DNA of 64,000 nt from contig NC_134025.1 of assembly GCF_964204645.1 (NCBI RefSeq), forward strand, positions 17,211,101-17,275,100. The letters are read 5' to 3'. The DNA comes from Tubulanus polymorphus. Taxonomy: Eukaryota > Animalia > Nemertea. Shown in pieces: positions 117 through 31,103 of the stretch (within the stretch, counting starts at the first letter, position 1; each line of letters opens with the position of its first letter). Made by a program: the position numbers and the translations under genes. The notes beneath the pieces were generated by a model, which saw only the letters and a program-made list of their open reading frames with translations, did no database searches and was not told the origin of the DNA.

Positions 117-1505
117 ATGGTAGATAGTTTTCCAAAAGCTTTCCAATATAATAAATCAATTAAATATAATATTCCAGCAATAGATTTTAATAAAGATATT
201 ACATATAGAAATGAAGTTTTAGATTCATTAACTAATTTAGAAATTTATGTTACTGAAACTAATAATTTTAATGCAAAGATGGAAAATATATTTCATGTAT
301 ATTTAATTAATTTTAAGAAATTGAAAGATGAAAAACAATGGTTATTAAAATCTAATATGAAGTATTGGCAGAACCAATTAAATTTTGCTGTTTATTGTGC
401 AACAACAGGTTGTGGAATTAGTTGGAATGATCATTTGAATAATTCTAAATATAAATTAATTCAAAGTTTATTTAGATTTCATACATACTTTCAAATCAGA
501 ATAATATTAAATGAATTAGAGTGCGCTTTACCAGGATCTAGATATTTTAAAGAATTAGATAATAATATTAATTTATCAAAGTTTTATAAAATTTGTAATG
601 AATTTAATATAGATATAAATAATTCTGATTTTAGAACAAAAATTGGAACAATAAGATCACTTCCTTGCCCTAAAAAGATTGCAGAATATTGTGCACTTCC
701 CATACCATCTAATAGTTTTTATAATATCTATAGTAATAAATTAGGTTATGGTAAAATAGAAACAAAGGATTTAGAAACATTAAATTTCAATAAATTACCG
801 ACATTTTATGATAATTTAAAACAAGAAAACAATAATGGTTGGGTTTATTTCATTTTAGAAAATAATGAAGGTTTTACAAAATCAGGTATACAAAGAATAA
901 ATCAATCTATTAGAACTTATTTGATATGTATTTTAGGTGCGCAAGTTGAAACAAGATCCCCGATAATTGGAAATTTGAATACATCATTTGATACACAGAA
1001 ACAATTCAAAGTATTATTTGAAGATTCCATTCATAATGATAAAAATAGATCGATTCCAGAAAACATTGTAAGATATCAAAATTATTTAGATAAATCACAT
1101 ATTAGATTAAATTATTGTATAGGCCCTAATCTATTTATTATTTCCAATGATTTAGTATTAAAGATGGGAAATATAATTGGTTATAATAATCTAATTAAGA
1201 CTGCAACAATAAATAATAAGTTTGGATTAAATGATATAAATAAAAAGATTATTACTGCTCCAAAACTAATGGAAGGTGAAAAAATTAAAAAACACATTCA
1301 ATCAACAGAAACTAAAACTAAGAATATTAAATTAAATAATGATTCTAAAATAAAAGATTACAATACATCAGAAAATATTAAAACTGATAATATTCAACAT
1401 GATATAATTAAACTAAATGATGATAATAAATCCCATGAAAATACTAAATTAGCTATAACTTGTATAGGAATTGTAATCGGAGGAATATTATATTTTAAAT
1501 TTTAA
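117..1505 (+). CDS. Conserved element protein of unknown function (462 aa) with C-terminal TM anchor
   Basis: Intact ORF, TAAATG start, YCATTGCGISW motif, hydrophobic C-terminus; near-identical disrupted homolog at 22440. Confidence 0.8.
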   Translation: MVDSFPKAFQYNKSIKYNIPAIDFNKDITYRNEVLDSLTNLEIYVTETNNFNAKMENIFHVYLINFKKLKDEKQWLLKSNMKYWQNQLNFAVYCATTGCGISWNDHLNNSKYKLIQSLFRFHTYFQIRIILNELECALPGSRYFKELDNNINLSKFYKICNEFNIDINNSDFRTKIGTIRSLPCPKKIAEYCALPIPSNSFYNIYSNKLGYGKIETKDLETLNFNKLPTFYDNLKQENNNGWVYFILENNEGFTKSGIQRINQSIRTYLICILGAQVETRSPIIGNLNTSFDTQKQFKVLFEDSIHNDKNRSIPENIVRYQNYLDKSHIRLNYCIGPNLFIISNDLVLKMGNIIGYNNLIKTATINNKFGLNDINKKIITAPKLMEGEKIKKHIQSTETKTKNIKLNNDSKIKDYNTSENIKTDNIQHDIIKLNDDNKSHENTKLAITCIGIVIGGILYFKF

Positions 1506-1521
1506 TTTTTGTATTATGTAA

Positions 1522-3117
1522 ATGGCAGAAGGTGTGGAAGATATTGGAATGGATACTTTTGATAAACCCGGCATAACTGAAGAACAACCACCTGATTTTA
1601 GTGAAACAAGTTTTAATGATGATAATGAGCCAGAATATAATACTAATTTAGGTGAAGATGATGATTATGATGGAATTAATTCCGAATTACGTGAAAAATT
1701 AAATGAAATTAAAATTAAAATAACAGGTGTAGTTGTAAACGAAATATTGCCAAAAGATGTAATAGATGAAATTGGTTCAGAAGAAATTGTAAAACTAATT
1801 TTAAAAGATGATCCATTTTTCATGAATAATTTAGAATTTAAAAATGATGTGTGGTATTATAATCTTGAATTAAATGGTGAAAATGTAAAATTAAGATTAT
1901 CTAAAATGGGACAAGAAAGTATGTATGCACCTAAAATGTTAGCAAGATCTACAATTGAACATTCAAAAGGTGGTTCAGAATTTATCAGAATTATATGGAA
2001 TGCAATCGATAGAATAAATGAAGAAGAACCAATTCCTAAAATTGATATTAACAAATATTCACCATTTGAAAATCCAAATTTAAATCCTGATTTTGATCCA
2101 GAAATGGAAGAATATGGAGATCGATCAGATAGATTAAGATCTTCAACACCAGAAACATCGAGAAGAGATATTCAACAAATTGATAATGATTCAAGTCAAT
2201 TACAATTAGTAAAACATTTTGATAGCATGTTAGATACAATTCATTCATTTGAAGAAGAGATGAATAGTATTTTAGATACGCCCGGTACTGAAACTGGAAT
2301 AAATCGAATACAATCTTTACTTAAAAAAGGACTTCTTAAATTAACTGATGATGAATTGGAAGCATTTCCTGAACAATCACGTAGAGAAATTAAAGGTATT
2401 CAAGAATCAGCTGATAAAATTGTGCGTGATAAAAGTATAAGAGATTTTAAAATTAGAACTTTAGAAAAAGAATTAACTGATAAAAATGAAGAAATAGAAA
2501 AAACAAAATTAGATAGAGATAATAAAGTTATTGAAGAAATCGAATTTAAAAAAAGAAATGCATATTTAGAAAAAGAAAAATATGATTTAGAATATAACAT
2601 AGAATTACAAAAAGAAGAAATTAAATTATTATTAAAATCATATGATTATAATATTGATAGATTAAAAGATATTTTTAAAAGATATCTAATAAAACCAGAT
2701 TCTAGAATATCATTGAAAGATAGAATAAAATTATTATTTAAGTTTGAAGGAATAACAATTCTTTCAATTCTAACAGCTGTAACTATGTTATTTACAACAA
2801 TTGGTTTAGCAATATCAAATGCTTTAGAATCTACTCCTACTCCAAATAAACCAGATAAACCCCCAGATAATAATTCTATACAAGATAAAGTTAAGGATGG
2901 TTTAAAGAAATTAGCAAAATATTTTTGGGAACTATCTAAAAAATCTGCTGCAGCATTGCCAGGAATTATTGCATCAATTGTTGGTTTTATATTGAAATCT
3001 GCAGGAAACATTATTAACTTTGCTGCTGAACATATTATTTTATTTTTAATTACAGTTGTAAGTGCTATTATTTTTGGGCTAGTGAATATGATATCAAAAA
3101 ATATCAAGAAAAAATAA
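1522..3117 (+). CDS. Acidic/coiled-coil protein with several C-terminal hydrophobic helices (531 aa), putative virion membrane or entry protein
   Basis: Intact ORF; E/K-rich coiled coil followed by EGITILSILTAV... and later TM segments; homologs at 23842 and ~41404; lies directly upstream of the capsid gene in all three copies. Confidence 0.7.
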   Translation: MAEGVEDIGMDTFDKPGITEEQPPDFSETSFNDDNEPEYNTNLGEDDDYDGINSELREKLNEIKIKITGVVVNEILPKDVIDEIGSEEIVKLILKDDPFFMNNLEFKNDVWYYNLELNGENVKLRLSKMGQESMYAPKMLARSTIEHSKGGSEFIRIIWNAIDRINEEEPIPKIDINKYSPFENPNLNPDFDPEMEEYGDRSDRLRSSTPETSRRDIQQIDNDSSQLQLVKHFDSMLDTIHSFEEEMNSILDTPGTETGINRIQSLLKKGLLKLTDDELEAFPEQSRREIKGIQESADKIVRDKSIRDFKIRTLEKELTDKNEEIEKTKLDRDNKVIEEIEFKKRNAYLEKEKYDLEYNIELQKEEIKLLLKSYDYNIDRLKDIFKRYLIKPDSRISLKDRIKLLFKFEGITILSILTAVTMLFTTIGLAISNALESTPTPNKPDKPPDNNSIQDKVKDGLKKLAKYFWELSKKSAAALPGIIASIVGFILKSAGNIINFAAEHIILFLITVVSAIIFGLVNMISKNIKKK

Positions 3118-3167
3118 TAAAAAATAAACATGATAAAAAATAAATAATTAATTTTTTTGTTAAATAA

Positions 3168-3993
3168 ATGGGTGGGAGTTATATCAATCCTTCTAAGAAT
3201 CATAGAATATCTAATGCTATTAAAGCAGAAAGATCACATCATATAATTACTCATAACCCTTCTAATATTAATCCCGATGAAACTTTATATGTTAGAATTC
3301 CTCGATTAACACAAAATACTTTTTATGTTCCAAATAGTATTTATTTATCAGCTGATATAAAAGTAATCGGTTATAATAATAATTATGTTGTTGATAATGT
3401 TGGAAGATATTTGATTAAAAAATTAACTACAAAGATTGGACCAGAAACAGTTTTCTCATTAGATGATTATAATTTATTTATGCATTATAAAGATTTATGG
3501 TTAACTAAAGAAAATAGAAATAATATGATATTTCAAGGCATCCAATCAGAAAACCAAAATAAATTAAGATCAGAAGCTAATAGCGCAATATTAACTAAAT
3601 GTTGATAATTATTATAATCCTGAAATAACAAAAGTAGAAATAACTATCGAAGGAATAGCAAATAAAATATTTTGTCAAGGAATGAGAATGATAGATCAAT
3701 GGCCAGATATTAGAAAACATTTTATGAATGAAAAAGTAAAATCATCTGAAAATTGTAACATTAATCAAATTGATTATTATACCGGTAATAAATACGCATT
3801 ATGGTTAGATTTTAGAACAACGGAGGATAATTCATTACATGGTTCTGGAAAAAAACTACAGAACACTAAAGATGGAATACAATTATTCATGACAAAGAAT
3901 AAAGGAATCAAAAATTTTAAAATGCACATTTATATTATATCTGACGCGCAATTAAATATTGTAAATTCTCAATTAAATAGTGTTATGTATTAA
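3168..3993 (+). pseudogene. Major capsid protein (probable double jelly-roll) with internal deletion
   Basis: The two ORFs match the N- and C-terminal parts of 25302..26548; about 420 nt are missing at ~3597. Capsid identity inferred from size, position and C-terminal LHGSG..LQN..GIQL..YIISDAQLNI pattern. Confidence 0.65.
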
Positions 3994-4025
3994 AATTTTA
4001 ACTTTAATAAAAATTTATATAATAA

Positions 4026-4904
4026 ATGGAAGGAGGTAAAGTATATAAACATATTCCATACATCGATACACATGAAAATAATGATGGTTTATATTATGTA
4101 ATACCTTGTAATATAGCTTTGATATTTGATCCTATTTTCAAAATTTATAAAACTAAACTAAGTTAAATAGAGATCGATAATAATAAAAGTGGTGTTGTTG
4201 ATAATTTAAGTAATGTAATTGATAATAATGTAATACCTTCTAAATCTAATAATGTAATACCTACTACATCTAATAATGTAATACCTACTACATCTAATAA
4301 TGTAATACCTACTACATCTAATAATGTAATACCTTCTACATCTAATTATGTAATACCTTCTACATATAATAATGCAATAATATTAAATGTTAGTAAAAAT
4401 AGAAATTATTGTGATTATTGTAAAGGTGAATTTTCAAACGCTCCATCAAATTGGAATAAACATATGAATACAAATTCACATATTACTAATGTAATAGAAC
4501 GTGTTGGTTTAAAAGAATTTATAGAACATCCATTTAGATATGTTACAAAATTTGTTTCAAATAAAAAAGTAAATGGTAAAGAATTATATGAAGATTTTTT
4601 ATTAGCAACACCTAATAAAGATGAATTAGATTTAACTGATGCTAATGAAATATTAGGATCAAACACTGTAAATGAAATATTAGGAGCAAACACTAATAAA
4701 GATGATAATGAAAATACAGGAAAGCGCATTGATAATAAAGATTCTATGAAACTTAAATCAGAAAATAAAGATATAGTTGAGATGCCTAATAAGTATATCA
4801 ATAAACCAATTATTTATGAAGATACGGTAGAGCATTTGAATAAATTGTTAGGGTCTGATAGTGAAAGTGATTCAGAAATTAATTATCTAACACTCAAAAA
4901 GTAA
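4026..4904 (+). pseudogene. Zinc-finger protein with SNNVIPTT repeats, one in-frame stop (~4164)
   Basis: TAAATG at 4026 is in frame with ORF 4464..4904; reads CDYCKGEFSNAPSNWNKHMNTNSH (C2H2-like); 24-bp coding repeat at ~4220-4375. Confidence 0.65.
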
Positions 4905-4954
4905 TAAAGGTTAAAAATTGTATAAAATAATAGTAAATAAAAAAGGGGGTTTTA

Positions 4955-5300
4955 AGTATTAAGGTATTTAATACATATCTAATACGTATCTAATACGTAT
5001 CTAATATGTATCTAATACATATTATTTGAAAATACCTTAAATTATATTTCTTTTTTAAATTTATATTGAAACCTCAGTAATAATAAATAACCTTTATTAT
5101 TTTCAAACTTATTCATATATTTGTTGAAAAAATAAAAATAAATTGGTTGAAAATTGTATAAATAATATTTATTTCAAAAAAGGGGGTTTTAAGTATTTAA
5201 GGTATCTAATAGGGTATCAGGTATTAGGTGGTATCAGGTATTAGGGTATCTAATAGGATATCAGGTATTAGGGTATCTAATAGGGTATCTAATACATAGA
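4955..5300. repeat. Short tandem repeats (TATCTAATACG; GGTATCTAATAG/TCAGGTATTAG) between convergent gene blocks
   Basis: Two clusters, each preceded by AAAAAAGGGG(G)TTTTAAGTATT (~4940 and ~5176). Confidence 0.8.
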
Positions 5301-5311
5301 TATATAAATAG

Positions 5312-5922
5312 TTATTTTATAAACTTATATTCATATGGAAATTGTAGTCTCAGTAATAATTTTGAACCTTTATTATTCTTTAATTTATTCATATATTCAT
5401 CATGTAATGCAGTAGGTATAATTTGATTTTCTTCCAATGATTGTTGCATAGATTTTTTATCTTTGTTATAAAATAAAACTAGAAATCTAATGTTTTCTCT
5501 AAAGTCTTTAACAATTGAATTATATTTTTGATTTAAAACCCATGTTGTCTCCCAAAATGTCTCCCAGAGAAAGCTAAATAACATAACTCACTTTCTCTCA
5601 CTTTTGAATCATGTAAATTTGCGCAATCATCTATAATGAATAATGTATTTGATCCTTTATAAGTATCAATTGCTATTTTAATACAATTATCTAAATTTTC
5701 TTTTACTGTTTTAGGATCTACTATAATAAACTTTTTTATCTTAACTATATCTCTATTATATGTTTTATTCATTTCATAAGTAGGACAAAATAATATTATA
5801 TTATCAAAATGATTCTTATAAATAGTTTCTAACAAATCTAATATGAAATGTGTTTTACCACAATTGGTTACTCCAGTAACTAACATATTATGCGGTTCGA
5901 ATATAAATAAATCTTTATTCAT
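5312..5922 (-). pseudogene. Genome-packaging ATPase (A32/FtsK-HerA type), frameshifted
   Basis: Walker A GVTNCGKT, Walker B FIIDD, and GRH motif; the C-terminal part continues in ORF 5312..5584. Confidence 0.9.
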
Positions 5923-7006
5923 TTATTCTTTTAATTTTACTAGATAAAATCCATTCATTAAATTTATCATCGTATCCTTTATATTTCACCAAAGAATACT
6001 TTTTTCCTTTAAGAGTTTTTGTTTTCAATACTTTTTCTATTTTGTATTCTATTTCATCTGGATTTGGTGCAAGTGATAATTCTTGTTCATAGAAATAACC
6101 TAATATTTCTTCATCTTTTAGATCTTCTAGTTTATAAACAAAAGTTTTAGTTAATATTATCTTTTTAATCTTGAATATTTCTTCAGTAAAATTTGGGGTA
6201 TAACCTTTATAAAATTTTTTTCTATATTTAGATATTCTTACGTGTTGTCCAATTTTAAATTTTGGTTCACCGAAATCGTGTGTAACAAACGCTCCATATA
6301 AATTATTCCAAACTATTTCCGAATTATCTTCTTTTCTAGCTTGTATAGGTTTAATATTTATAGAACTATGTTTAGAATTATTATAACCTTTCACTAAATC
6401 ATCTAATACATCGATATATTTATATGTTTCATTAGCAGTAAAATATTTCCACATTCTAGTTTTCAATGTTTTATTAAATCTTTCTATAATAGATGCTTTT
6501 TTATCTGAATGTGTTGAAAAATAATCTACATCGTTATCAGATAATAGTTTTTTGAAATGTTTGTTATAAAATTCCTTACCTTCATCAAATTGTATCTTAT
6601 CTGGAATAGCTTCTTTAAATATCGATTTAAAAGCATTTGTAACTTCTATTCCAGTTTTATTTTTGATTGGAATTGACCATGGGTATCTACTGAATATATC
6701 TATAACATTTAATATCCAGAAATATCCTTTGTTGTATTCTTCTAAGTTCTTCATGTCAATTAAATCTGCTTGCCATTGTTGATCGATATATGAAACCATA
6801 ACTTTTCTTGTTAAATAAGTTTTATCCATTTTCTTTTGGATTTGATATGTTGGTTGATTTTGTAACCATGATTTTAATTCACCATATTTTATATTACCAT
6901 TTTCTTTATCAGATTTAATTTTATTCCATAATTCTGAAACGCTAGAATATGATACTTCACTTTCTGGGTTATAATATAAAGCTCTTGAATATTGTTCTTT
7001 TTTCAT
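5915..7006 (-). CDS. Polinton retroviral-like (rve) integrase with C-terminal chromodomain
   Basis: WQADLID, IDIFSRY, QFDEGKEF and ERFNKTLK DDE motifs; C-terminal YKIEKVLK..YSLVKYKGYDDKFNEW chromo-like segment; intact 363 aa. Confidence 0.93.
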   Translation of the reverse strand: MKKEQYSRALYYNPESEVSYSSVSELWNKIKSDKENGNIKYGELKSWLQNQPTYQIQKKMDKTYLTRKVMVSYIDQQWQADLIDMKNLEEYNKGYFWILNVIDIFSRYPWSIPIKNKTGIEVTNAFKSIFKEAIPDKIQFDEGKEFYNKHFKKLLSDNDVDYFSTHSDKKASIIERFNKTLKTRMWKYFTANETYKYIDVLDDLVKGYNNSKHSSINIKPIQARKEDNSEIVWNNLYGAFVTHDFGEPKFKIGQHVRISKYRKKFYKGYTPNFTEEIFKIKKIILTKTFVYKLEDLKDEEILGYFYEQELSLAPNPDEIEYKIEKVLKTKTLKGKKYSLVKYKGYDDKFNEWILSSKIKRINE

Positions 7007-7012
7007 CTTATT

Positions 7013-7381
7013 TTAATCCATTAATAATAATTTAGATTTAGTTTCAATGATTTTATCATTTGACTAATTTTCTGGTATAATAGGTTTATAATCATTGGAA
7101 TCATCTTTATCATCAGATTTGAATTTTGATTTATATATTACACCGGATAATATAATAATTGTGATTTACCCAATTGTAATATATAAGTAATTATTTCTTC
7201 CACTATTAGAAGAATTAAATGGATTGTTATTTGAATCAATATCAGATAATTTCTGTGATTCATTTATATCAGTTAATTTCTTTTTCTAAGCTTTTTTTAA
7301 TTCTGAAGATCTTTTACCTAATTCTCTTGCCCATTTAATTTGTTTCTCAGATCTAACCTTTTTCTTAACTCCATCACTCAT
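7013..7381 (-). pseudogene. Small basic protein with one TM helix (homolog of 29157..29525)
   Basis: TAAATG start; MSDGVKKKVRSEKQIKWARELGKRS matches KKKPRSQKQIEWSRQLGIKS in copies B/C; internal stops. Confidence 0.6.
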
Positions 7382-7976
7382 TTATTTTAGTTAATTTTTG
7401 TTCTGATTCATTTTCTGTTTCGACGTTTGGTTGTAGTACATCTGTTTCGTTCTTTCCTGATTTATATTCCATAGGCTTGATGTTCGAAAATGTTATGACG
7501 CCAGTAGAAATTAATGTCATAACCGATCCTAATTGAAATGAAGCATAACCAACCCATTTTTGTAATTCAGTCATAACTAAGTAGTCATTTTTCAAATCAC
7601 TATATAATTCATTTTCATCATTAATTGGTATTAACTGGTTACATAACTTAGAATAACATTTGACAATACCATCTGAAATAGAATCATTTATTCTAGCTAA
7701 TCTTGCCTCTTCATAAATCTTCAAATATTTTATTACTTTATCTGGTTTCATAGAGTCTAGTTCTTGAAAAGTAATGATTCTATTTAAAAACTCCTTAGTT
7801 TTTCCACCGGCAATCAATAGTTCTAGATGATGCTTACAATATAAATAGTATTCATAATCTATATTACAATTAACTTGAGCACAATTAGTTACAACCGTAT
7901 CTTTATTATCACTTATACCCAAATCATCTAATGTCTTTTCAATATCAATACTATTCTTACTCGATTTCTTTGACAT
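7374..7976 (-). CDS. Conserved element protein of unknown function (200 aa)
   Basis: Intact ORF; YEYYLYCKH..LLIA.G and LYSDLKNDYLVMTEL shared with 28620 and 52972. Confidence 0.75.
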   Translation of the reverse strand: MSKKSSKNSIDIEKTLDDLGISDNKDTVVTNCAQVNCNIDYEYYLYCKHHLELLIAGGKTKEFLNRIITFQELDSMKPDKVIKYLKIYEEARLARINDSISDGIVKCYSKLCNQLIPINDENELYSDLKNDYLVMTELQKWVGYASFQLGSVMTLISTGVITFSNIKPMEYKSGKNETDVLQPNVETENESEQKLTKINE

Positions 7977-8231
7977 TTATATTAGAGAAAAAAAGCAAAA
8001 AAATATTATAAGTATTATAAAATGATACTAGTATCTCTTTAGGTTAATACTAAATTGACTAGGTTAGTTAAAGGTAAAGAATTTTAGTATTAGTTATTGT
8101 TTTTTTAGTATTTTTTATTTGTGATATAAAGTATTCTTTTTTGAAAAGAAAATATTAAAAATATAATAGAATTCACTAGCTAGTTGAAGTTATTGTTTTT
8201 TTAATATTTTTTATTTAAAATCTATTATTCT

Positions 8232-8908
8232 TCAACCACTCAATAAAGATTCAACATATTGTTCATTATTTGGATCATTGTTCCATAATTCAATGAATTT
8301 CTTTGCTTTATCTAATTGATCCAAATATAACTGTAAATCTAGTTTATTAGATTAGATTTGATTTTCTTTCTTTTCTAAAGGCCTTAAATTCTTCCAACCC
8401 CAAATAAGTTTTTTATTGTATTCATCATTCATGTTAAATTTAGAAATCGGTAACACGTGATCAATATGAAAGTATTCACCATAATTATCTATATTCATTT
8501 TATCATCGAATTGAAATATAATCCATGATTTGAGAAATTCATCTGAACAACCCAACAAATTAGATAATGTTTCTGAATGTGTTTCTTTGTTGAATAATTG
8601 TGTTAATCTAGATCTTAAGCATTGTTTCACTTTAAAATCAAAATCTGTTTGATATCTTTCTCTCATATATTCTGCCATATAATAATTATAATGTTCTATA
8701 TTATCTTCTCGGTATTGTTTGGTATATAGTTTAAAACAATATTGAGTTTTACAACAATATTGAAAACCATCTTTGCTAATCTTACGCTTACTAAATTCTG
8801 TTAAAGCTACTTTATCTAATTCACACTTAGAACACTTCTTGTAATATATATTTATAACACACCAGTGTTATTTGTAATATTGATAATTTGTGGTTGTTCT
8901 GGTTCCAT
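8232..8908 (-). pseudogene. HNH endonuclease with N-terminal CxxC domain, resembling large-DNA-virus types
   Basis: TAAATG at 8908; KKCSKC..TEFSK..KDG..CK, then LGCS, NYGEYFHIDHVLPISKF, WKNLRPL..KEN; one frameshift near 8858 and an in-frame stop at 8352. Confidence 0.8.
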
Positions 8909-9049
8909 TTATTATATGTATTTTTTACTAAATTGGTTAATATTTTAGAATCCTCTTCCATTTCTTCGACCAACGTCATCCTTTTTCATTCCTCGCTGCT
9001 TTTGATAAATTGTTTCGATTCCTTGATATTTAAATCATACCAGTTACAA

Positions 9050-9760
9050 TATCCGCGCATTCAGGCCCGGTTTGGATCAATGCGCATGCGTTAATCATAA
9101 TTATATATTCATTCTGTAAATTCTGTAAAATAGAAACGACCGAACACAGAAAATATCTAAACGTGTTCGCATTAGGCAAACCGCGCATTCATGCGCGCTT
9201 TTGCTTAATGCGCATGCGTTAATCATAATTATATTTACATAATGAATATATAATTATGTAAATAGAAACGACCGACATGAAATATCTAAACGTGTTCGCA
9301 TTAGGCAAACCGCGCATTCATGCGCGCTTTTGCTTAATGCGCATGCGTTAATCATAATTATATTTACATAATGAATATATAATTATGTAAATAGAAACAA
9401 CCGACATGAAATATCTAAATCATACAACTGAGCAAACCGCGCATTCAGGCCCGGTTTTGCTCAATGCGCATGCGTTAATCATAATTATATATTCATTATG
9501 TAAATAGAAACGACCGACATGAAATATCTAAATCATACAACTGAGCAAACCGCGCATTCAGGCCCGGTTTTGCTCAATGCGCATGCGTTAATCATAATTA
9601 TATATTCATTATGTAAATAGAAACGACCGAACATGAAATATCTGAATCATACAACTGAGCAAACCGCGCATTCGTGCGCGGTTTTGCTCAATGCGCATGC
9701 GCTAATCCTAATTATATATTCATTCTGAATAGAAACGACCGAACATAAAAATTCACCAAA
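9050..9760. repeat. Tandem array of about 6 palindrome-containing units (113-129 bp)
   Basis: GCAAACCGCGCATTC recurs at ~9176, 9305, 9432, 9545 and 9659, each followed by its near reverse complement. Confidence 0.9.
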
Positions 9761-20940: not shown

Positions 20941-21300
20941 ATGAATATAACTGTGGGACCGAGTATATGTTTTGGGTTTGATTTTAAACGTGAGAAAGAA
21001 ATGAAATTTAACATTAATGATGTAATTACACATATCAAAAATATTGCACTTTCTAATGAAACAACATTTGAATATGAAACAACAATAGATAAAGAAAATT
21101 TAAATGTAGAAAAGATTACTAATTTAATTAGAGAATCTTTAAGATTTTATGAATTAGATGAAGATTTTATCATAGATGATATCAAAAACATATTAACCAA
21201 AATATATGATAATCATAAAAGTAGTAATGAAATAAAGGTTGAATTAATCATCACTAAGATAACTAAATATTTTGAAGATAATAATTTTTTTGATAAATAA
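20941..21300 (+). CDS. Hypothetical protein (119 aa)
   Basis: Intact ORF, TAAATG start, abuts the next gene. Confidence 0.6.
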   Translation: MNITVGPSICFGFDFKREKEMKFNINDVITHIKNIALSNETTFEYETTIDKENLNVEKITNLIRESLRFYELDEDFIIDDIKNILTKIYDNHKSSNEIKVELIITKITKYFEDNNFFDK

Positions 21301-21522
21301 ATGAGTGATAATAAGTGGATAATAACTGGATTATATAATGGAGCATTACTATCAGTTGGAACTGTTGGTTATTCAATGGTATTAAAAAAAGTATTCAAAA
21401 TGGGAAGTGTTAATGTTGATAGATTTGATATAAATGATATTTTAAAATTAACATTAGCAGTTACTTTATCTAATTTAACTATTGATTATTTGGAAAAACA
21501 AAAATATATTCCTCCCATATAA
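21301..21522 (+). CDS. Small hydrophobic protein (73 aa)
   Basis: Intact ORF, TAAATG start, two hydrophobic or amphipathic helices. Confidence 0.65.
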   Translation: MSDNKWIITGLYNGALLSVGTVGYSMVLKKVFKMGSVNVDRFDINDILKLTLAVTLSNLTIDYLEKQKYIPPI

Positions 21523-21546
21523 ATGCGTAATTATTTTACTTAATAA

Positions 21547-21969
21547 ATGGCTTCTGCAATTATAACTATTATAGGATCGGCAATTGTTAACGCTTTAGCA
21601 TTTACTGGTGGTGGTTATTTATTTAAGCATATTGATAAAAATAGTTCATTGGGAGAACAAAGAAGACATAACTTAGCATTAGAAAAATACAATAAAGCAG
21701 CAGAAGAATATAGAGAAAAGAGACAAAACTATATGGATTATATTAACAAGGAATTATATGATCAGAAGATTTCACATAGAGATTTTCAATCAGTCGATGA
21801 TGCAATGAGTTTATATAACGCGGTAAGCAATAAAAAAAAATTACATCTATACAAACCTAAATTATCAGATTATTATACCCCAAGTAAAGAACAACAGAAA
21901 TATGAAATAATATGGATTTTAGGTGGAACTGTTATTGTTATATTTGTTGCTTATAAGTTTACTAATTAG
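21547..21969 (+). CDS. Membrane-active or core protein candidate with ExxRHN motif (140 aa)
   Basis: Gly/Ala-rich hydrophobic N-terminus, EQRRHNLALE, C-terminal TM helix. Confidence 0.65.
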   Translation: MASAIITIIGSAIVNALAFTGGGYLFKHIDKNSSLGEQRRHNLALEKYNKAAEEYREKRQNYMDYINKELYDQKISHRDFQSVDDAMSLYNAVSNKKKLHLYKPKLSDYYTPSKEQQKYEIIWILGGTVIVIFVAYKFTN

Positions 21970-21989
21970 TAATTTTTTTTTCTAAATAA

Positions 21990-22424
21990 ATGGAAGATAA
22001 AGTTGATAATATTGATATTATTCCTCATGATATAAATAAAACTAAATTAAAAATATATTTAGAAAAACAAATATTAGAATTTGAAAGTGACTTAAAGATA
22101 AAAAAGAAAAAATATTTAAAAAGTAAAATTATATATTATCTTATTATTAGTGGTTCGGTTACAATTAGTTCTGTAATAACATTTCTAGCAATATTCAGTC
22201 CATTAACACCTTTAGCTATATCAATTGGTGTATTAGGATTAAGTTCAAGTGTTTTAACTGGTATAAGTTCAAAATTAAATATAAAAAGTAATAAAGAAAA
22301 AATTGAAACTAATATAAAAGCAATTAATAAATTAAAGAATACACTAGATTATATAATAAGTTTAAATGGCTATATAACAGTTGAAGAACAAGATAAATTA
22401 TTAAAAGAATTAATAAATTATTAA
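21990..22424 (+). CDS. Two-TM membrane protein (SLATT-like architecture, 144 aa)
   Basis: Basic helix, two adjacent TM segments, then a coiled C-terminus; second copy at 1..100. Confidence 0.7.
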   Translation: MEDKVDNIDIIPHDINKTKLKIYLEKQILEFESDLKIKKKKYLKSKIIYYLIISGSVTISSVITFLAIFSPLTPLAISIGVLGLSSSVLTGISSKLNIKSNKEKIETNIKAINKLKNTLDYIISLNGYITVEEQDKLLKELINY

Positions 22425-22439
22425 TTTTTTATTATATAA

Positions 22440-23826
22440 ATGGTAGATTGTTTTCCAAAAGCTTTGCAATATAATAAATCAATTAAATATAATATTCCAG
22501 CAATAGATTTTAATAAAGATATTACATATAGAAATGAAGTTTTAGATTCATTAACTAATTTAGAAATTTATGTTACTGAAACTAATAATTTTAATGCAAA
22601 GATGGAAAATATATTTCATGTCTATTTAATTAATTTTAAAAAATTGAAAGAAGAAAAACAATGGTTATTAAAATCTAATATGAAGTATTGGCAGAACCAA
22701 TTGAATTTTGCTGTTTATTGTGCAACAACAGGTTGTGGAATTAGTTGGAATGATCATTTGAATAATTCTAAATATAAATTAATTCAAAGTTTATTTAGAT
22801 TTCATACTTATTTTCAAATAAGATTAATATTAAATGAATTAGAGACCCCTTTACCAGGATCTAGATATTTTAAAGAATTAGATATTAATATTAATTTATC
22901 AAAGTTTTATAAAACTTGTAATGAATTTAATATAGATATAAATAATTCTGATTTTAGAACAAAAATTGGAACAATAAGATCACTTCCTTGCCCTAAAAAG
23001 ATTGTAGAATATTGTGCACTTCCTATACCATCTAATAGCTTTTATAATATCGATAATAATAAATTAGGTTATGGTAAAATAGAAACAAAGGATTTAGAAA
23101 CATAAAATTTCAATAAATTACCGAAATTTTATGATAATTTAAAACAAGAAAACAATAATGGTTGGGTTTATTTCATTTTAGAAAATAATGAAGGTTTTAC
23201 AAAATCAGGTATACAAAGAATAAATCAATCTATTAGAACTTATTTGATATGTATTCTAGGATCACAGGTTGAAACAAGATCCCCAATAATTGGAAATTTA
23301 AATACATCATTTGATACACAGAAACAATTCAAAGTATTATTTGAAGATTCCATTCATAATGATAAAAATAGATCGATTCCAGAAAACATTGTAAGATATC
23401 AAAATTATTTAGATAAATCTCATGTAAGACTAGATTATTGTATAGGCCCTAATCTATTAATTATTTCTAATGATTTAGTACTAAAGATGGGAAACATAAT
23501 TGGTTACAATAATCTAATTAAAACTGCAACAATAAATAATTCATTTGGATTAAATGATATAAATAAAAAGATTATTACTGCTCCAAAATTAATGGAAGGC
23601 GAAAAAAATAAAAAACATATTCAATCAACAGAAACTAAAACTAAGAATATTAAATTAAATAATGATTCTAAACCGGATTATAATACATCAGAAAATATTA
23701 AAACTGATAATATTCAACATGAAATAATTAAAACTGATAATGATAATAAATCCCATGAAAATACTAAATTAGCTTTAACTTGTATAGGAATTGTAACAGG
23801 AGGAATATTATATCTTAAATTTCAAT
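22440..23826 (+). pseudogene. Homolog of 117..1505, frameshifted at ~23103
   Basis: Near-identical protein sequence split into two ORFs; original stop changed from TAA to CAA. Confidence 0.85.
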
Positions 23827-23841
23827 TTTTTTATTATATAA

Positions 23842-25281
23842 ATGGATGGAGAAGATATTGGAATGGATAATTTTGATGAACCTGGCATAACTGATGAACA
23901 ACAACCTGATTTTAGTGAAACAAGTTTCAATGACGGTAATGAGCCAGAACGTAATTCTAATTTAAATACACCTGCATATATTGATAAAACACGTTCAAAG
24001 ATAAGTATTGAAAATGAAGTACCAGAAATAACAGAAAAAGAATACAAATATAATGAAATTATTCATGAATTTAAACCAATGTTAAAAAGATCTGGTTTCA
24101 ATATAACAAATAAAGGTATGAATTATTTAGTAAAAGATTTGAAATATTTTAATGGTGATTATTATTGGAAATTGAAAGGCGACTATTATTTTAAGATTTC
24201 TTCTAATAAAAGTCTCGATAAAATAATAACAAAATCAACTTTAATTAAATTTGAACAATCTAGAATTAAGAAAATCATTAATGATGTTATAACTGATATT
24301 ACAGAACAAGAGATAACTCAAAATAAAAAAGAATTTAAACGAAGAAATGATGATTTTTTTGAAGATAAATAATGCAAATTTAGAACCAGAAACAACTTCT
24401 GAACAGAATAAAACTTCCAAAACTAGTAAACCTAAATCAACCGAAGTTCAAACTGAAAAACTTTTACAAAATGGGTTACTTGATGCAACAAATCAAGAAT
24501 TAGAAGATTTAAATATATTTTCTGATGAAGCAATTAGAGAAATTATTAGTATAAGAAATGAAGCTGATAAAATTGCACATAATAAAAGTATAAGAGATAT
24601 TAAAATTAGAACTTTAGAAAAAGAAGTAACTGATAAAAATAAAGAAACAGAACAATTTAAGTCTGATCTTGATAGTCAAGCAATTGTTGAAATGGAATAT
24701 AGGCAAAAAGAATTACGTTTAGAAAAAGAAATTAATAATTTAAAAGATAATTTAGAATTACAAAAAGAAGAAATTAAATCATTATTAAAATCATATGATT
24801 ATAATATTAATAGATTAAAAGTTATTTTTAAAAATTTGTTGATAAAACCAAATTCTGAAGTATCATTGAAAGATAGAATAAAATTATTATTTAAATTAGA
24901 ACAATTCTTTCAATTCTAACAGCTGTAACTATGTTATTTACAACAATTGGTTTAGCAATATCAAATTCTTTGAAATCTACTCCTACTCCCAATAAACATG
25001 ATAAACCCCCGAATGATAATAATTCTATACAAGATAAAGTTAAAGATGGTTTAAAGAAATTAGCAAAACATTTATGGGAACTATCTAAAAAATCTGCTGC
25101 AGCTTTACCAGGAATTATTGCATCAATTTTTGGTTTTATATTGAAATCAGCTGGGAATATTCTTAACTTTGCTGCTGAACATATTATTTTATTTTTAATT
25201 ACCGTTGTAAGTGCTATTATTTTTGGGTTAGTGAATATGATATCAAAAAGATATCAAGAAAAAATAATAAAAAATGAATAA
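23842..25281 (+). pseudogene. Homolog of 1522..3117, disrupted, with a different central domain
   Basis: Shares EDIGMD.FD.PGIT at the N-terminus and the coiled-coil/TM C-terminus; three ORF pieces. Confidence 0.85.
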
Positions 25282-25301
25282 TTAATTTTTTTGTTAAATA
25301 A

Positions 25302-26548
25302 ATGAGTGGGAGTTATATAAGTCCTTCTAAGATTTCTAGAATATCTAATGCTATTTAAGCAGAAAGATCACATCATATAATTACTCATAATCCTTCAAAT
25401 ATTAATCCCGATGAAACTTTATTTGTTAGAATTCCTAGATTAACACAAAATACTTTTTATGTTCCAAATAGTATTTATTTATCAGCCGATATAAAAGTAA
25501 CTGGTCATGATAATAATTATGTTGTCGATAATGTTGGGAGATATTTGATTAAAAAATTAAGTATAAAGATCGGTCCAGAAACAGTTTTCTCATTAGATGA
25601 TTATAATTTATTTATGCATTATAAAGATTTATGGTTAACTAAAGAAAATAGAAAATTATGATATTTCAAGGTATTCAATCGGAAAACCATAATAAATTAA
25701 GATCAGGAGCTAATGACGCAATAGTAACTCGTGCCGCAGATAATTTGATTAAAAAGATTTATGGAAGCAAATATAAAATTCCATTAGACTTTGAATTGAT
25801 AAATAATAATGCACCTTTATATAAATATGTAATTCAAGAAGATATTATATTTGAGATAACATTTGCTCCTGTAAATGAAATTGTATTATCTAGCGTTGTT
25901 AAAGATATGGTATATAAATTATCGAATATATGTTTAGAATATGACACAGTAACTAATGAAAATATTGCTAGCACAATTCAAACTCAATACAATCAAGGAT
26001 TTTTATTATTATATGATTATATTGATAAATTTAAAACTGTAACTATTATTGCAAATGATGAAATAATTAATGAGAATATTAACTTCCCAAGAAGATCTGT
26101 TAAAGGTATATTAATATTTTTTACCATTGCAACATATTCTAATGGCGCAATAAATGTTGATAATTATTATAATCCTGAAATAACGAAAGCAGAAATAACT
26201 ATCGAAGGAATAGCAAATAAAATATTTTGGCAAGGAATGAGAATGATTGATCAATGGCCAGAAAATAGAAAACATTTTATGAATGACAAAGTAAAATCAT
26301 TTGAAAATTGTAATATTAATCAAATTGATTATTATACCGGCAATAAATATGCATTATGGTTTGATTTCAGAACAACAGAGGATAATTAATTACATGGTTC
26401 TGGAAAAAAACTACAGAACACTAAAGATGGAATACAATTATTCATGAAAAAGAAAAAAGGAAGCTTAAATTATAAAATGCACATTTATATTATATCTGAC
26501 GCACAATTAAATATTGTAAATTCACAATTAGATAGTATTCAATATTAG
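25302..26548 (+). pseudogene. Major capsid protein, full length (~415 codons) with stops and a frameshift
   Basis: Collinear with the copy A and copy C fragments; beta-rich character; sits between the membrane genes and the integrase. Fold not verified. Confidence 0.7.
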
Positions 26549-26578
26549 AAATATAAAGTTAAAATTAACGATATATAA

Positions 26579-27705
26579 ATGGGTGGTAAAAAAACTCCTA
26601 ATACTAAAGAACAATATTTAAGAAATTTATATTACAACCCTGAGAGTTCGGTTGCTTATTCTTCTAACAAAAATATATGGCGTCAAGTAAAACAAGATAA
26701 ATTAGATAGGATAATCCCACAAAATTTAGTTAAATATAAAGATATAAATGAATTCATGTTAGAACAACCAACATACACAACACATAAAAAAATTGTTAGA
26801 AAATATAAAACTCGTAAAACTATGGTAAGTTATGTAGATCAACAGTGGCAAGGAGATTTATTGATATGAAAAATGTTAAGAAAGATAATAATGATTATTG
26901 GTGGTTATTGAATATAATTGATATTTTTAGTCGTTATGTATGGAGTTTCCCACTTTATAGAAAAGATGCTGTACAAACATCAAATGTTTTAAGAAAATTT
27001 CTTTTGGATGATAAACTAAAACCAGAAAAAATACAATTTGATGATGGAAAAGAGTTTGATAATTCACTTGTTCATGAACTCTTGGATAATCATAATATTA
27101 AATATTTTTCAACAAAATCGGATAAAAAAGCAGCAGTTGTTGAACGATTTAATAGAACATTAAGAACAAGAATGTGGAAATACTTTACAGCAAATAATAC
27201 TTTTAAATGGATTGATGTTTTACCAAAATTGATAGAAGGATATAATAATTCTTATCATTCTTCTATTGGAATGAAACTTATTGATGCTAGAAAACCTGAA
27301 AATGCTGAAATTGTTTGGAATAATTTATATGGAGCATTTCTTGTAGATGATTTTGGTGAACCTAAATTTAAAGTTGGTCAAAATGTTAGAATTTCTAAGT
27401 ATAAAAAGATATTTGACAAAGGATACGATCGAAATTTTACTAGAGAAATATATAAAATAAAAAAGGTAATAACAACAAAACCATATGTCTATAAATTAGA
27501 AGATTTAGATGGTGAAGAAGTTGATGGCTACTTTTACGAAGAAGAATTAAGTTTAACTACTGAAAATCTAGAACAAGAATATAAAATTGAAAAAGTATTA
27601 AAAACAAAAACTGTTAAAAGAAAAAAATATTCTTTAGTAAAATGGGTTGGATGGCCAGATAAATTCAATGAATGGATATTATCAAGTAAAATTAAAAATA
27701 TATAA
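26579..27705 (+). pseudogene. rve integrase with chromodomain, one frameshift at ~26860
   Basis: WQGDL/IDM, IDIFSRY, QFDDGKEF, ERFNRTLR, LVKWVGWPDKFNEW. Confidence 0.93.
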
Positions 27706-28314
27706 ATGAATAAGGAATTATTTATATTTGAGCCTCATAATATGTTAATTTCTGGTGTAACAAATTGTGGAAAAACTTATTTTATATTAAATTTATTAGA
27801 AACTGTTTATGAAAACTATTTTGATAATATAGTATTATTTTGTCCAACATATGAATTTAATCAAACTTATGATAGAAATATTACTAGAAATAATAAATTT
27901 ATTATATTAGATCCTAAAACAGTAAAAGACAATTTAGATAATTGTATTAAAATAGCAATAGATATTTATAAAGGATCAAATACATTATTCATTATAGATG
28001 ATTGTGCAAATTTACATGATTCAAAAATTAGAGAGAGTGAGTTATGTTATTTAGCTTTTTCTGGTAGACATTTTGGGATAACAACTTGGGTTTTAAATCA
28101 AAAATATAATTCAATTGTTTAAGACTTTAGAGAAAACATTAGATTTCTAGTTTTATTCTACAATAAAGATAGAAAATCGATGAAAAATGCACTTGAGGAA
28201 AATGATATTATTCCACATGATTTACATAATGAATATATGGATAAGTTGAAAAATATTAAAAGATCAAAATTACTATTTAGATAACAACACCCATTTAAAT
28301 ATGAATTTATTTAA
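27706..28314 (+). pseudogene. Packaging ATPase with in-frame stops
   Basis: GVTNCGKT, FIIDD, SGRHFGIT; homology continues past the stop at 28122. Confidence 0.9.
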
Positions 28315-28317
28315 ATT

Positions 28318-28590
28318 CAACTAGCTTGTTAATCTATTACATATTTAGTTACATTCTAGTTGAATTCTAGTTATTAGTAGTTGGAACAAAAAAATAAATA
28401 AAAACAACAATATTTTAACTAGCTTGTTAATCTAGTATATTTTTAGTTACATTCTCGTTGAATTCTAGTTATTGGTAGTTGGAACAAAAATCAACTAGAT
28501 TTAACAAGAAATAAATAAAAACAACAATATTTCAACTAGCTTGTTAATCTAGTTGAATTCTAGTTACATTCTAGTTGAATTCTAGTTGCA
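28318..28590. repeat. CTAG-rich intergenic repeat, about 3 units (second copy at 52775-52950)
   Basis: AACTAGCTTGTTAATCTA.. TTACATTCTAGTTGAATTCTAGTT is repeated. Confidence 0.8.
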
Positions 28591-28619
28591 ACAACACAAT
28601 TGATTTTTTTGTTATATAA

Positions 28620-29228
28620 ATGGGAGGTGAAACGAAAATAAAATCTAAAAATGGTGATGTTCCAATCGAAAAAACTTTAGATGATTTAGGAATAACAGAA
28701 AACAAATTAATTCCAGATGATGGTGCTTTAAATAATGTTACAACAAATAATAATTATGAATATTATCTTTATTGTAAACATCAATTAGAAATATTGATAG
28801 CATCTGGAAAATGTAAAAATTTTACCGGTAAAAATTTAACTTATAATGAATTAGATACAATGAAATCAGATGAAATTATTAGATTATTTAAGATTTATGA
28901 AACCGCGAGAACAGCTAGAATTAATGACGCGATATCAGAAAATGTAGTAAAAGGTTATAGTAAATTATGTAATTATATGCTACCAATTGAAGATGAAAAT
29001 AGATTATATTCCGATTTAAAAATGATTATTTAGTTATGACTGAATTAAATAAATGGATTGGATATTTATCATTTCAATAATTTGGATTTATGACATTATT
29101 ATCAACTAGGGTTATAACATTTTCAAATATTGAAAGTAAAAATATTTCTATAATAAATGAACAAGGCGGAAGAAGTGAAGGAATTAACTGTGAAGAAAAA
29201 ACCGAGATCACAGAAACAAATTGAATGA
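28620..29228 (+). pseudogene. Homolog of 7374..7976, frameshifted
   Basis: YEYYLYCKHQLEILIASGK, ARINDAIS, LYSDLK. Confidence 0.8.
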
Positions 29229-29525
29229 TCTCGGCAATTAGGAATTAAATCACAAGAATATAAAAAAGCTGTAAAAGAAAAAATAAGTAATAAAAATGTT
29301 AATAAAAATAGTGAAAATATTGTTATTTCTACTCCTTCTAATAATAGAATATTTGATAAATGTCTATATTTTACAGTTGGATTTGTAATTGTATTCATTT
29401 TGATTGGGTGTAATTGGTATAAGAAATCAAATAAAATTCATGATATTAATAATTCTGAAACAACTGCTATCAAAAATGAAAATACTTCTGAAATTCCAAA
29501 ATTGATAATAAAAAAAATGGATTGA
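29157..29525 (+). pseudogene. Small basic single-TM protein
   Basis: TAAATG start; KKKPRSQKQIE*SRQLGIKS followed by a TM segment; homologs at 7013 and ~53506. Confidence 0.6.
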
Positions 29526-29662
29526 TATTTTAGAAAAAAAGCAAAAGAATAATTGAATATCTCACTACTTTTGTCTATCTATGCGGAGCAATTAAATTGT
29601 CCAGATAAGTCATTTCGGATTCTAGATATTCATTATTTTTATTAATTTATTTTTTTTAAAAT

Positions 29663-31103
29663 TTAATCAACAATTTCTAAATCATGATGACCGTCTTCAT
29701 TTTTTCCATGATAGATTATTTTAAATCCTTCTAAATCTTTTAATTCCTCTATACTCAATGAAACCCATTTATCAGGTAAAAATACTTTAAATTCTCGCGA
29801 TGTACTAACATTGCAGTAGCTTAAATTAGCTGATACTGATATAACAAAGCGACAGTTTATGACATTTTTTCTCACATTGTATCATGTTTTATCTATCATA
29901 TATTCCCATTTATCAGATTTTGTAATCGATTATATAATAATGAAATTGATTTTATAGTGGATGTACCGAGTTTTATATCCATCAAAATGTGGATATTCGT
30001 TGTCTGGGAACAATAACAGTTCAGTATTTTGATAGTTAAGTATTTCGAAACTTTTCCCGTGGGCAGCAACACAATGTTGTTATCTGCTGCTAACGAAATC
30101 CAGGAGGTCAGTCATCTGGCCTCCATTAAGCTGCTTTAAGATGTGTGTAAACATCCTCTGCCCTCTCTGCCGAAAATAGTCCTCGTATGCAATTTTGTTA
30201 TAACTGTTTCATATCAAAGCGACAACTTAGAATTTTGACCAGGCAACGAGTATCCACCAATTATCTTTAACCAGTTTTTGTTTTTGACCAATCAGAAGAA
30301 TTGGGGTTGGGTGAGATCGGGACCCAAGATCGGTCTTGGGTCACATTTGCCTTCTACGATTCGAGAAATAAACAGCTTTAGCTTTGGAATTATACACTAT
30401 CATACTATAACTACGGATATTGTTACATTATATATTTTAAAGGTAAGAAGACTTTGTTTTTAAATCTATCAATTTTGAAGATAACTGAATTGACATTGAT
30501 AATTGTGAAGTCATATTATTCATAGTGGATTATGATTGAAATATTAGAGAGAAGAATATATCAGTCAGAGTTGAGCACACGCCGCTCTACCTTAAGTTGG
30601 CTAAAAGTCTATGATGCTTACTAGCTCACGTCCGCTAGTTGGTCAAGACCGATCTGAATTAAGATTAACGTATATAACGAATGTTAGTTTCATTACTACG
30701 ATTATAATAGAAAGAGATAAAATGACTGTAGTGTCGCAAATAGTTGCATGAATATCTATATGTATATCAAACAATTACTACTATCATATGAAATATTGTA
30801 ACACATTTGCCTTCCACGATTCGAGAAATAAACAGCTTTAGCTTTGGAATTATACACTATCATACTATAACTACGGATATTGTTACATTATATATTTTAA
30901 AGGTACCGAGCTTAGTTCCCCGAGCACCGGCTTTCGTTAGGGTGCTATACTTTCTCTCCATATTTAGTTTTTATCTTTTCTAATTTCAATATTTTATGTT
31001 CAATTTCTTTTGTAACATCAACTAACTTTTTTATTTCAAATTGTTTTTTTGCTGGTTTTATTCTGTTATTTATTGTTGCTAAGAATGCTTTTCTATCTCC
31101 CAT
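29663..31103 (-). pseudogene. Small protein (~108 aa, possible OB-fold/ssDNA-binding) split by a 1.1-kb insertion
   Basis: Rejoined it reads MGDRKAF..KIKTKYGEKV|SANL..FKVFLPDKW..IIYHGK; uninterrupted but frameshifted copy at 55299..55626. The function is a guess. Confidence 0.65.
29838..30946. mobile_element. Unclassified non-coding insertion with ATACT on both flanks
   Basis: Absent from copy C (~55470); internal ~100-bp direct repeat (30342 and 30802); 3' hairpin AGCACC...GGTGCT. Confidence 0.75.

Follow-up and report, generated by a model that had tools for sequence, protein, structure and literature searches.

A compact TAAATG-centered start signal in a decayed Polinton-like virus integrated in the genome of Tubulanus polymorphus

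Analysis of a 64,000-nucleotide stretch of the nemertean Tubulanus polymorphus genome (NCBI RefSeq assembly GCF_964204645.1, contig NC_134025.1, positions 17,211,101 to 17,275,100; hereafter the window) identified a decayed, integrated element in which nearly every gene begins within a compact two-part signal centered on TAAATG. The form and placement of this signal in the sequence suggest that it is likely a virus-type promoter; we tentatively favor, at a probability of roughly two in five, the reading that a large DNA virus would supply in trans the apparatus that reads this promoter, the element having a provirophage-like life style. The combination of an A32-type packaging ATPase, an rve integrase, pPolB, and a capsid gene, with neither RNA polymerase nor protease found, indicates that the element is a decayed endogenous Polinton-like virus. 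Polintons (Mavericks) are common in animal genomes. A uniform promoter resembling that of poxvirus late genes offers a concrete and testable handle on how such elements are read and on whether any of them depend on other viruses.

The two-part start signal

Self-BLAST recovers at least four copies or fragments of the element in the window (1–8900, 22325–29554, 41408–43322, and 51025–53902), the first two of which are referred to as copies A and B. The initial annotation of the window listed 22 positions at which the initiator lies within TAAATG, and all 22 carry the motif with the ATG at the coordinate given. Fifteen of these sites head open reading frames (ORFs) of 73–531 amino acids (117, 1522, 3168, 5922(−), 7976(−), 20094(−), 20941, 21301, 21547, 21990, 22440, 23842, 26579, 27706, and 28620), and seven head only 18–52 amino acids in the decayed copy (4026, 7381(−), 8908(−), 15053(−), 25302, 29157, and 31103(−)). 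Genes were defined as ATG-initiated ORFs of at least 70 amino acids, not mostly overlapped by a longer ORF, in the AT-rich parts of the window (1–9000 and 15000–29500). Under this rule TAAATG starts 16 of 33 ORFs, as compared with 66 of 912 ATGs on both strands that are preceded by TAA (7.2%; binomial P = 2e-10), and the supposed enrichment at starts over the composition background is thereby upheld. Many of the 17 ORFs lacking the motif are internal pieces of broken genes; one of the 16 that carry it (18008) lies inside a frame-broken intein and probably reflects chance. The sites are, as originally described, mostly not stop–start overlaps, with only two of the 22 (21301 and 27706) being plain overlaps.

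Two starts had been named as exceptions to the motif. That at 20163 reads TAAATAATG, as described, while that at 7006(−) reads TAAAATAAGATG rather than the sequence given for it. Raw counts are inflated by paralogous copies; per distinct gene, approximately 18 of 20 kinds have a start at TAAAT(G/A) in one or more of the window copies. Outside this set are pPolB, whose 5′ end is absent, and p149, whose start is ambiguous. The integrase belongs to the set only through copy B (26579); in copy A and in most other copies the start has the context found at 7006(−).

TAAATG forms the downstream part of two longer signals. In class I, (G/T)TAATTTTTT is followed by a spacer of 5–8 nt and TAAAT(G/A); the T-run measures 5–9 nt, and the spacer is 6 nt at 7 of 12 sites. 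Class I precedes p462, p531, capsid, p200, the zinc-finger gene ZnF188 (p188), p119, p73, p140 (whose T-run is interrupted), and p144, and the p128 version ends in TAAATA. In the window, TTTTT-N5-9-TAAATG matches 38 times, at 18 distinct sites, where shuffled sequences give 3.36 ± 2.15; the AT-rich parts alone hold 12 distinct class I sites, each of them a gene start, as compared with 1.72 ± 1.31 in 500 dinucleotide shuffles, none of which exceeds 7. In class II, a TAAAA(A) core lies 8–13 nt upstream of TAAATG. This form precedes the ATPase gene, the copy B integrase gene, and five decayed genes; its 10 matches, all of them at starts, compare with 3.45 ± 2.0 in shuffles, one in 100 of which reaches 10.

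The T-runs reported at 1506, 3154, and 28606 exist; standing at a fixed distance of 5–8 nt from TAAATG, they form the upstream half of class I and are best read as a promoter core rather than as separate early terminators, though they may in addition act at gene ends. Copies A and B of p200 are 72% identical, yet the T-run and TATAAATG are kept in both. A 68-bp divergent gap (20095–20162) accommodates two back-to-back promoters, one motif for each outward gene (ZnF188 on the minus strand and p128, at TAAATAATG, on the plus strand), and no gene ends there. Additionally, the first methionine of p462 (M1) is invariant in an alignment of 40 homologues, which marks the ATG of the motif as the genuine start codon. 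These data together favor a promoter.

Except for its shorter core, the architecture of class I fits that of poxvirus late promoters. In these, according to a passage of PMC5294985, some 20 bp containing T residues make up the core, a 5–7 bp spacer follows, and TAAAT(G/A) spans the start site, there being no 5′ untranslated region. Table 1 of PMC11423596 lists a late consensus ending in WNWWWTWWWNNNNNWTAAATG, TAAAAA-N14-TAAA for intermediate promoters, and UUUUUNU for early termination. The likeness to the poxvirus late initiator that the initial annotation saw in TAAATG thus extends to the published architecture of T-rich core, spacer, and TAAAT(G/A) at the start codon, with a spacer of 5–8 nt here as against 5–7 bp. 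Class II recalls the intermediate type only loosely, its spacing being 8–13 nt as against the 14 N listed. The element itself is no poxvirus and lacks poxvirus transcription genes altogether, and any use of a pox-type polymerase here is putative.

Two other explanations of the motif were rejected: spliced-leader acceptor sites, because no AG occurs in the spacers, and a conventionally spaced TATA box, with which the conserved M1 is incompatible. Polyadenylation hexamers are present at some gene ends and absent at those of p462, the ATPase, and pPolB; they are uninformative at such base composition. At the p140 promoter (21541 region), most family copies differ from the window at one spacer base (476 of 489 and 495 of 509 reads). 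A doubled TAAATAAATG stands already in four window genes (capsid, p73, p144, and one further copy).

Start motifs among relatives

The same ORF rule was applied to a control set of 104 loci with a related pPolB, nearly all of which match the window's pPolB through full-length ORFs of 1,100–1,400 amino acids at 37–59% identity (27% in the outlier, L104). Strong TAAATG enrichment is seen only in L002, where 6 of 6 starts carry the motif at a guanine-plus-cytosine content (GC) of 0.38 (P = 1e-9). Weak signals appear in L042 (2/7), L059 (2/3), L088 (2/7), and L102 (2/9), and the other loci have 0 or 1 TAAATG start each, except L073 (2/13). Equally AT-rich loci are without the motif, including L090 (GC 0.22; 1/11), L010 (GC 0.24; 0/4), L027 (0/4), and L009 (0/2), so AT-richness is not its explanation. 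The initial annotation proposed a comparison with other Polinton families, and most of these relatives lack the motif. In a FastTree phylogeny of 86 rows, which left out 19 loci with short matches or stops, L004 (support 99) and L010 (support 100) fall together with the window in an AT-rich clade, while L002 is distant; this topology indicates that the polymerase and the motif were not inherited together.

Where the structural module of the window (p462, p531, capsid, ATPase, and p140) recurs in other loci, different compact motifs are found near the ATG, identified by eye and lying 10–30 nt before nearly every ATG. L056 and L055 have TTTAAAAATAATCT, L005 and L069 have AAAAAATAAT ... TATATA, and L034 has a window-like AATTTTTT-N4-6-TATAAA(A)TG. 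A further motif, AAAATATCT(T/A), in L010, L088, and L090 recalls by eye the TCTA of mavirus and CroV described in a passage of PMC8547959. Motifs that are specific to a lineage although the capsid module is shared may provide a way to pair Polinton-like viruses with their helpers in metagenomes. Scanning IMG/VR with AATTTTTT-N4-8-TATAAATG returned at least 118 stretches, with a single match each among the matches listed, and several of these are in contigs of giant-virus metagenome-assembled genomes (MAGs); as a search for motif-rich genomes the scan was uninformative. One relative in the control set, L094 (IMGVR_UViG_GVMAG-M-3300013285-9_000001), has a related pPolB (39% identity) on a 5.6-kb contig binned with a giant-virus MAG; TAAATG is found at 0 of its 2 starts.

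The literature searched contained no report of a uniform TAAATG-centered promoter in Polintons or Polinton-like viruses, and nothing relevant that links TAAATG with Polintons, virophages, or Nucleocytoviricota; the EMALE motif supplement of PMC8547959, which lay outside that search, may list a TAAAT-like motif.

Possible sources of the transcription apparatus

Poxvirus late polymerase slips on TAAAT to produce a poly(A) leader, and a leaderless start codon is thus workable. If transcription of the element likewise started within TAAAT, its messages would have no templated leader and would need a slipping polymerase that adds a 5′ poly(A) leader, as the poxvirus late apparatus does. Such an apparatus could be supplied in trans by a coinfecting large DNA virus with pox-like late promoters, and integrated copies would remain silent until such an infection, a strategy resembling that of the mavirus provirophage. 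Intergenic gaps of 15–25 nt, a foreign base composition, the absence of a polymerase gene, and the lineage-specific motifs of relatives fit a virus-type promoter on which a large DNA virus would act in trans. Were a non-host polymerase involved, it would imply an unseen large DNA virus and a virophage-type interaction outside the protists. A narrower form of the proposal, in which the copies are provirophages of an undiscovered pox-like metazoan large DNA virus whose polymerase alone would switch on both late-type and intermediate-type promoters, appears doubtful. If true, it would be the first case in which a parasite of virophage style is linked to transcription of the poxvirus type, perhaps also as a heritable defence, and the independent TAAATG lineage L002 would indicate that such helpers are widespread.

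Promoter sharing of the kind proposed has precedents among virophages and Polinton-like viruses, in which the motif is a copy of that of the helper giant virus. A passage of 10.1101/2022.07.28.501842 describes a mimivirid early motif, AAAATTGA, in PgVV, and the use of late motifs by Sputnik and mavirus; EMALE types carry different motifs that point to different giant-virus partners, type 4 having the CroV late TCTA (PMC8547959), and, as discussed in 10.1101/2025.10.09.676808, CroV reactivates EMALEs only if their promoters are CroV-like. The element resembles mavirus, the EMALEs, and PgVV-14T as a small integrating double-stranded DNA virus with an rve integrase and a short promoter motif at all genes that varies between relatives. 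It differs in that their motifs are TCTA or AAAATTGA rather than TAAATG, and in that their hosts are protists with known giant viruses, whereas no helper virus was seen here.

The capsid provides a further point of difference. An AlphaFold2 (AF2) model of the intact capsid of a relative, L056 (predicted local distance difference test score, pLDDT, 82), matches the capsids of the iridovirus SGIV and of PBCV-1 with E 2e-17, and those of mavirus (6g45) and Sputnik (3j26) with E 3e-11 and 5e-11, respectively (TM 0.50). On this model the capsid is a predicted double jelly-roll protein, nearer the nucleocytoplasmic large DNA virus (NCLDV) type than those of Sputnik and mavirus. Neither this capsid nor the gene content, in which no cysteine protease was found, bears out the membership in the virophage family proposed in the initial annotation, and both agree with assignment to the Polinton-like viruses. 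The element shares with Polintons/Mavericks (Polintoviricetes) pPolB, rve integrase, A32/FtsK ATPase, and double-jelly-roll capsid, as well as its integrated, multi-copy, and decayed state; it differs in the adenain-like protease that was not found, in a pPolB with an intein, and in a GC of 0.23 as compared with 0.37 for the host. The pGKL-type cytoplasmic linear plasmids of yeasts are likewise AT-rich pPolB elements with compact upstream promoters, and their mRNAs have nontemplated 5′ poly(A) leaders. However, these plasmids are nonintegrating, lack a capsid, and encode both an RNA polymerase and a capping enzyme; in all of these respects the element differs.

Several observations weigh against a helper virus of pox-like type. 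The capsid, which on the model is nearer the NCLDV type than those of Sputnik and mavirus, is one of these; neither transcripts nor transcription start sites or poly(A) leaders were seen, and no giant-virus or pox-like genes were seen in the window. The class I core is a T-run of 5–9 nt, as compared with about 20 bp in poxvirus late promoters. In other family copies, as seen in the loose ends of reads, the integrase and p128 starts are mostly TAAAATAA(G/T)ATG, indicating that TAAATG is not used by every gene. The element has its own pPolB and integrase, and its family occurs in many diverged copies beside long interspersed nuclear element (LINE), hAT, pogo, and gypsy sequences, as is typical of autonomous nuclear Polintons/Mavericks. 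Finally, no poxvirus or other animal virus is known to us to host a virophage, and the literature search turned up none.

The main alternative, only somewhat less probable, is that the signal is a host-nuclear core promoter and the element an autonomous Polinton/Maverick read by RNA polymerase II (Pol II), alone or with a DNA-binding protein of its own such as the C2H2 protein p188. The T-run and TATAAAT would then be the family's own compact promoter style, consistent with the presence in all family members of a compact AT-rich motif near the ATG, of lineage-specific sequence; were Pol II responsible, the family would define an unusual leaderless core promoter. The many germline copies, a chromodomain integrase suited to chromatin targeting, the element's own pPolB and zinc-finger protein, and the lack of a helper virus among the genes of the window all agree with this alternative. 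TATAAAT also resembles a TATA box, but Pol II starts approximately 25–30 nt past such a box, and a TATA abutting the start codon would therefore place the transcription start approximately 25–30 nt inside the ORF, yet M1 of p462 is invariant in the 40 homologues. Conversely, a start within TAAAT would provide no leader for scanning ribosomes. Gaps of 15–25 nt also leave no room for the usual promoter and polyadenylation signals, and the base composition is far from that of the host.

Less probable again, and in our view improbable, is that the signal marks gene junctions in polycistronic transcripts, with the T-run ending or processing the upstream message and TAA-ATG coupling termination to re-initiation. 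Table 1 of PMC11423596 gives TTTTTNT as the poxvirus signal for early termination, at three junctions (p462–p531, p144–p462, and p140–p144) the stop codon of the upstream gene is immediately succeeded by the T-run, and two of the 22 sites are true overlaps; but at the other 20 the TAA is not the stop of the upstream ORF, the T-run keeps its 5–8 nt distance from TAAAT and no fixed distance from the stop codon, and the motif also occupies the divergent gap at 20095–20162, where no gene ends. T5NT is depleted within ORFs on both strands alike (10 as against 21.6 ± 5.2 in sense, 61 as against 97.9 ± 12.5 in antisense), which does not favor the junction model; as a test of a terminator role, T5NT avoidance was discarded as not specific. 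Chance in AT-rich sequence, inflated by paralogous copies, is an extremely improbable explanation. TAAATG is mildly enriched overall (66 as against 50.4 ± 6.5), and copies A, B, and C are 85–94% alike, with the consequence that three promoters are counted two or three times. Nevertheless, the enrichment is specific to starts, the two-part motif precedes 8–10 independent genes where 1.7 sites would be expected anywhere, equally AT-rich relatives are without it, and L002 has it at all six starts at a GC of 0.38.

Genes, copies, and surroundings of the element

Copy A (1–8910) is composite, with a left end beyond the window, and comprises a plus-strand block of p462, p531, and capsid, followed by a minus-strand block of ATPase, integrase, p200, and an HNH-like gene. 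The GC is 0.22–0.25 at 1–8900 and 15000–29550, as compared with 0.29–0.42 (mostly 0.33–0.40) in the flanks and in an insert at 9000–15000, the insert alone having 0.29–0.37. Copy A by itself has 0.23–0.25, and the element as a whole stands at 0.23 as against 0.35–0.40 in the flanks. The first gene, p462 (117–1505(+); class I promoter 101–119), is intact and encodes an accessory protein that is better conserved than any other in the family; of its 149 homologues, many lie on megabase contigs. Its AF2 model (mean pLDDT 74, core above 90) consists of a helical domain and a C-terminal membrane helix. Foldseek searches with this fold against PDB and BFVD returned no match with E ≤ 0.001, and VIA-align (wide) none with Z ≥ 5, the best (Z 4.0) being one helix pair; a PDB profile search gave only noise at E 0.07, the ESM Atlas no usable match, and comparison with viral contigs no match. 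Directly past the p462 stop lies the class I promoter (1506–1524) of p531 (1522–3117(+)), a predicted coiled-coil protein with C-terminal membrane segments and homologues in L056, L038, and L005.

The copy A major capsid protein gene (3168–3993(+); class I promoter 3152–3170) is broken, part of its interior being deleted in comparison with copy B. No window copy of the capsid gene is intact; unbroken relatives in metagenomic loci are 30–41% identical to the pieces, and 18 of 28 members of the capsid family match Pfam Capsid_N, while a search of PDB sequences with the capsid profile returned no matches. A class II promoter (4008–4028(+)), recognized by its TAAAA core, spacer, and TAAATG, precedes a decayed gene starting at 4026.

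On the minus strand, the copy A A32-type packaging ATPase gene (5312–5939) is in two frames, with its TAAATG start at 5922 and a TAAAA-type core at 5920–5939 within the 3′ end of the integrase gene; 5533–5922(−) matches Pfam Pox_A32 (E 1.7e-8). The integrase gene (5915–7006(−)) is intact in this copy, starts in the context TAAAATAAGATG rather than TAAATG, and encodes an rve domain (E 3.4e-9) and a C-terminal chromodomain, the latter with a Chromo match (8.4e-5) just under the gathering score (22.9 vs. 25.1 bits). Further along are p200 (7374–7993(−); class I promoter 7974–7993), next to which a gene starts with TAAATG at 7381, and the HNH-like endonuclease gene (8352–8927(−)), whose ORF at 8352–8678 is frame-broken from an upstream start with a class II promoter and TAAATG at 8906–8927, and whose match to Pfam HNH_4 (E 0.018) is below the cutoff.

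The element is interrupted at 9000–15000 by the insert, which is host-type by its GC and Pfam RVT_1 match, and holds a tandem repeat (9026–9750), a hAT-like ORF (11744–12888(−)), and a LINE reverse transcriptase (13646–14875(+); RVT_1 8.8e-20). Two pPolB fragments follow. One (15083–16072(−)) is without an intein, has the YFDTDS motif intact, and adjoins the class II promoter of the next gene (15051–15071); within it, the match of 15678–16052(−) to Pfam DNA_pol_B_2 (E 4.8e-5) falls slightly short of the gathering score (22.9 vs. 25.8 bits). The other, from copy B (16139–18760(+)), comprises the C-terminal two thirds and is 5′-truncated and frame-broken; the N-terminal third of pPolB is missing from the window. 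A 1,060-bp intein (approximately 17279–18338) is inserted between YFD and TDS of the catalytic motif in the copy B fragment, while the minus-strand paralogue is contiguous at 15614/15615, and both alleles of pPolB, with and without the insert, thus lie 1 kb apart. The intein, itself frame-broken, has two LAGLIDADG-like motifs seen by eye, and its Pfam matches are weak (Intein_splicing 0.055, LAGLIDADG_3 0.064). Both the intein and the HNH-like gene, which had been explained as effects of a helper virus, are ordinary selfish inserts and indicate nothing about a helper.

Beyond pPolB, a C2H2 zinc-finger protein of 188 amino acids, ZnF188, is encoded at 19528–20108(−), with a promoter (20092–20113) combining a TAAAA element with a T-run. 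Past the divergent gap, a run of small genes (p128, p119, p73, p140, and p144; 20163–22424(+)) has class I promoters at 20925–20943, 21285–21303, approximately 21526–21549, and 21973–21992; p140 has homologues in 9 loci. The structural and integration block of copy B (22325–29554(+)), delimited by self-BLAST and motifs, is frame-broken in all its genes, which start at 22440 (p462), 23842 (p531), 25302 (capsid), 26579 (integrase), 27706 (ATPase), 28620 (p200), and 29157 (a small membrane-protein gene), with promoters at 22425–22442, 23826–23844, 25286–25304, 26560–26581, 27687–27708, 28604–28622, and 29137–29159, respectively. Positions 1–1650 and 22325–23964 are 94% alike, and 5319–6895 and 28310–26733 (reverse) 76%. 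Pfam searches identified no RNA polymerase genes among the window ORFs or in the relatives L056, L038, and L002, and sequence profiles alone gave no Pfam match to an adenain-like cysteine protease among 28 window ORFs and 24 ORFs of L056, L038, L002, and L034.

A third fragment (41408–43322(+)), identified by self-BLAST, joins the 3′ part of p531 to the 5′ part of the capsid gene, with a class I promoter at 42516–42534, and a fourth (51025–53902(+)) contains the capsid end, integrase, ATPase, and p200, with promoters at 52119–52140, 52957–52974, and 53485–53507. No terminal inverted repeats were seen in the window, where the left end of copy A is absent and copy B is rearranged at 16070–16083. 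Raw genomic reads with the same organism label cover 15000–29600, with depths that sum to approximately 66–1,040 in each bin, and only 1,257 of the 39,417 aligned reads are at least 99% alike, indicating that the element family is large and diverged. At five frame breaks of copy B the majority of family reads differ from the window's reading, which suggests that these breaks are private to the window copy, and loose read ends at 16070/16083, the junction of the two pPolB fragments, point to a local rearrangement there. Four sequencing runs from one study contain 22–50% of the stretch's words; none of the runs containing such words is listed as RNA, and two runs (one guessed to be RNA) gave a single spurious match of 18–24 nt each.

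To the right of copy B, a continuation (29550–31498(−)) contains decayed minus-strand genes with TAAATG starts at 29768 and 31103, on the basis of which the element may extend farther rightward than its AT-rich part; the GC of this flank is nonetheless host-like (0.37). The flank is duplicated at 55190–55713, the right flanks of two element copies having been duplicated along with them, with different inserts in each. Three tandem-repeat arrays with units of approximately 110–160 bp lie beside or inside element fragments (9026–9750, 33427–34059, and 54510–55115), and pogo-like and gypsy-like ORFs occur farther right in the window. Finally, an unbroken stop-to-stop frame of 408 codons (58922–60148(+)) resembles zinc-type enoyl/alcohol dehydrogenases (ADH_N, ADH_zinc_N; compare mitochondrial enoyl reductase); this intronless frame could be a retrocopy; otherwise it points to an intron-poor gene.

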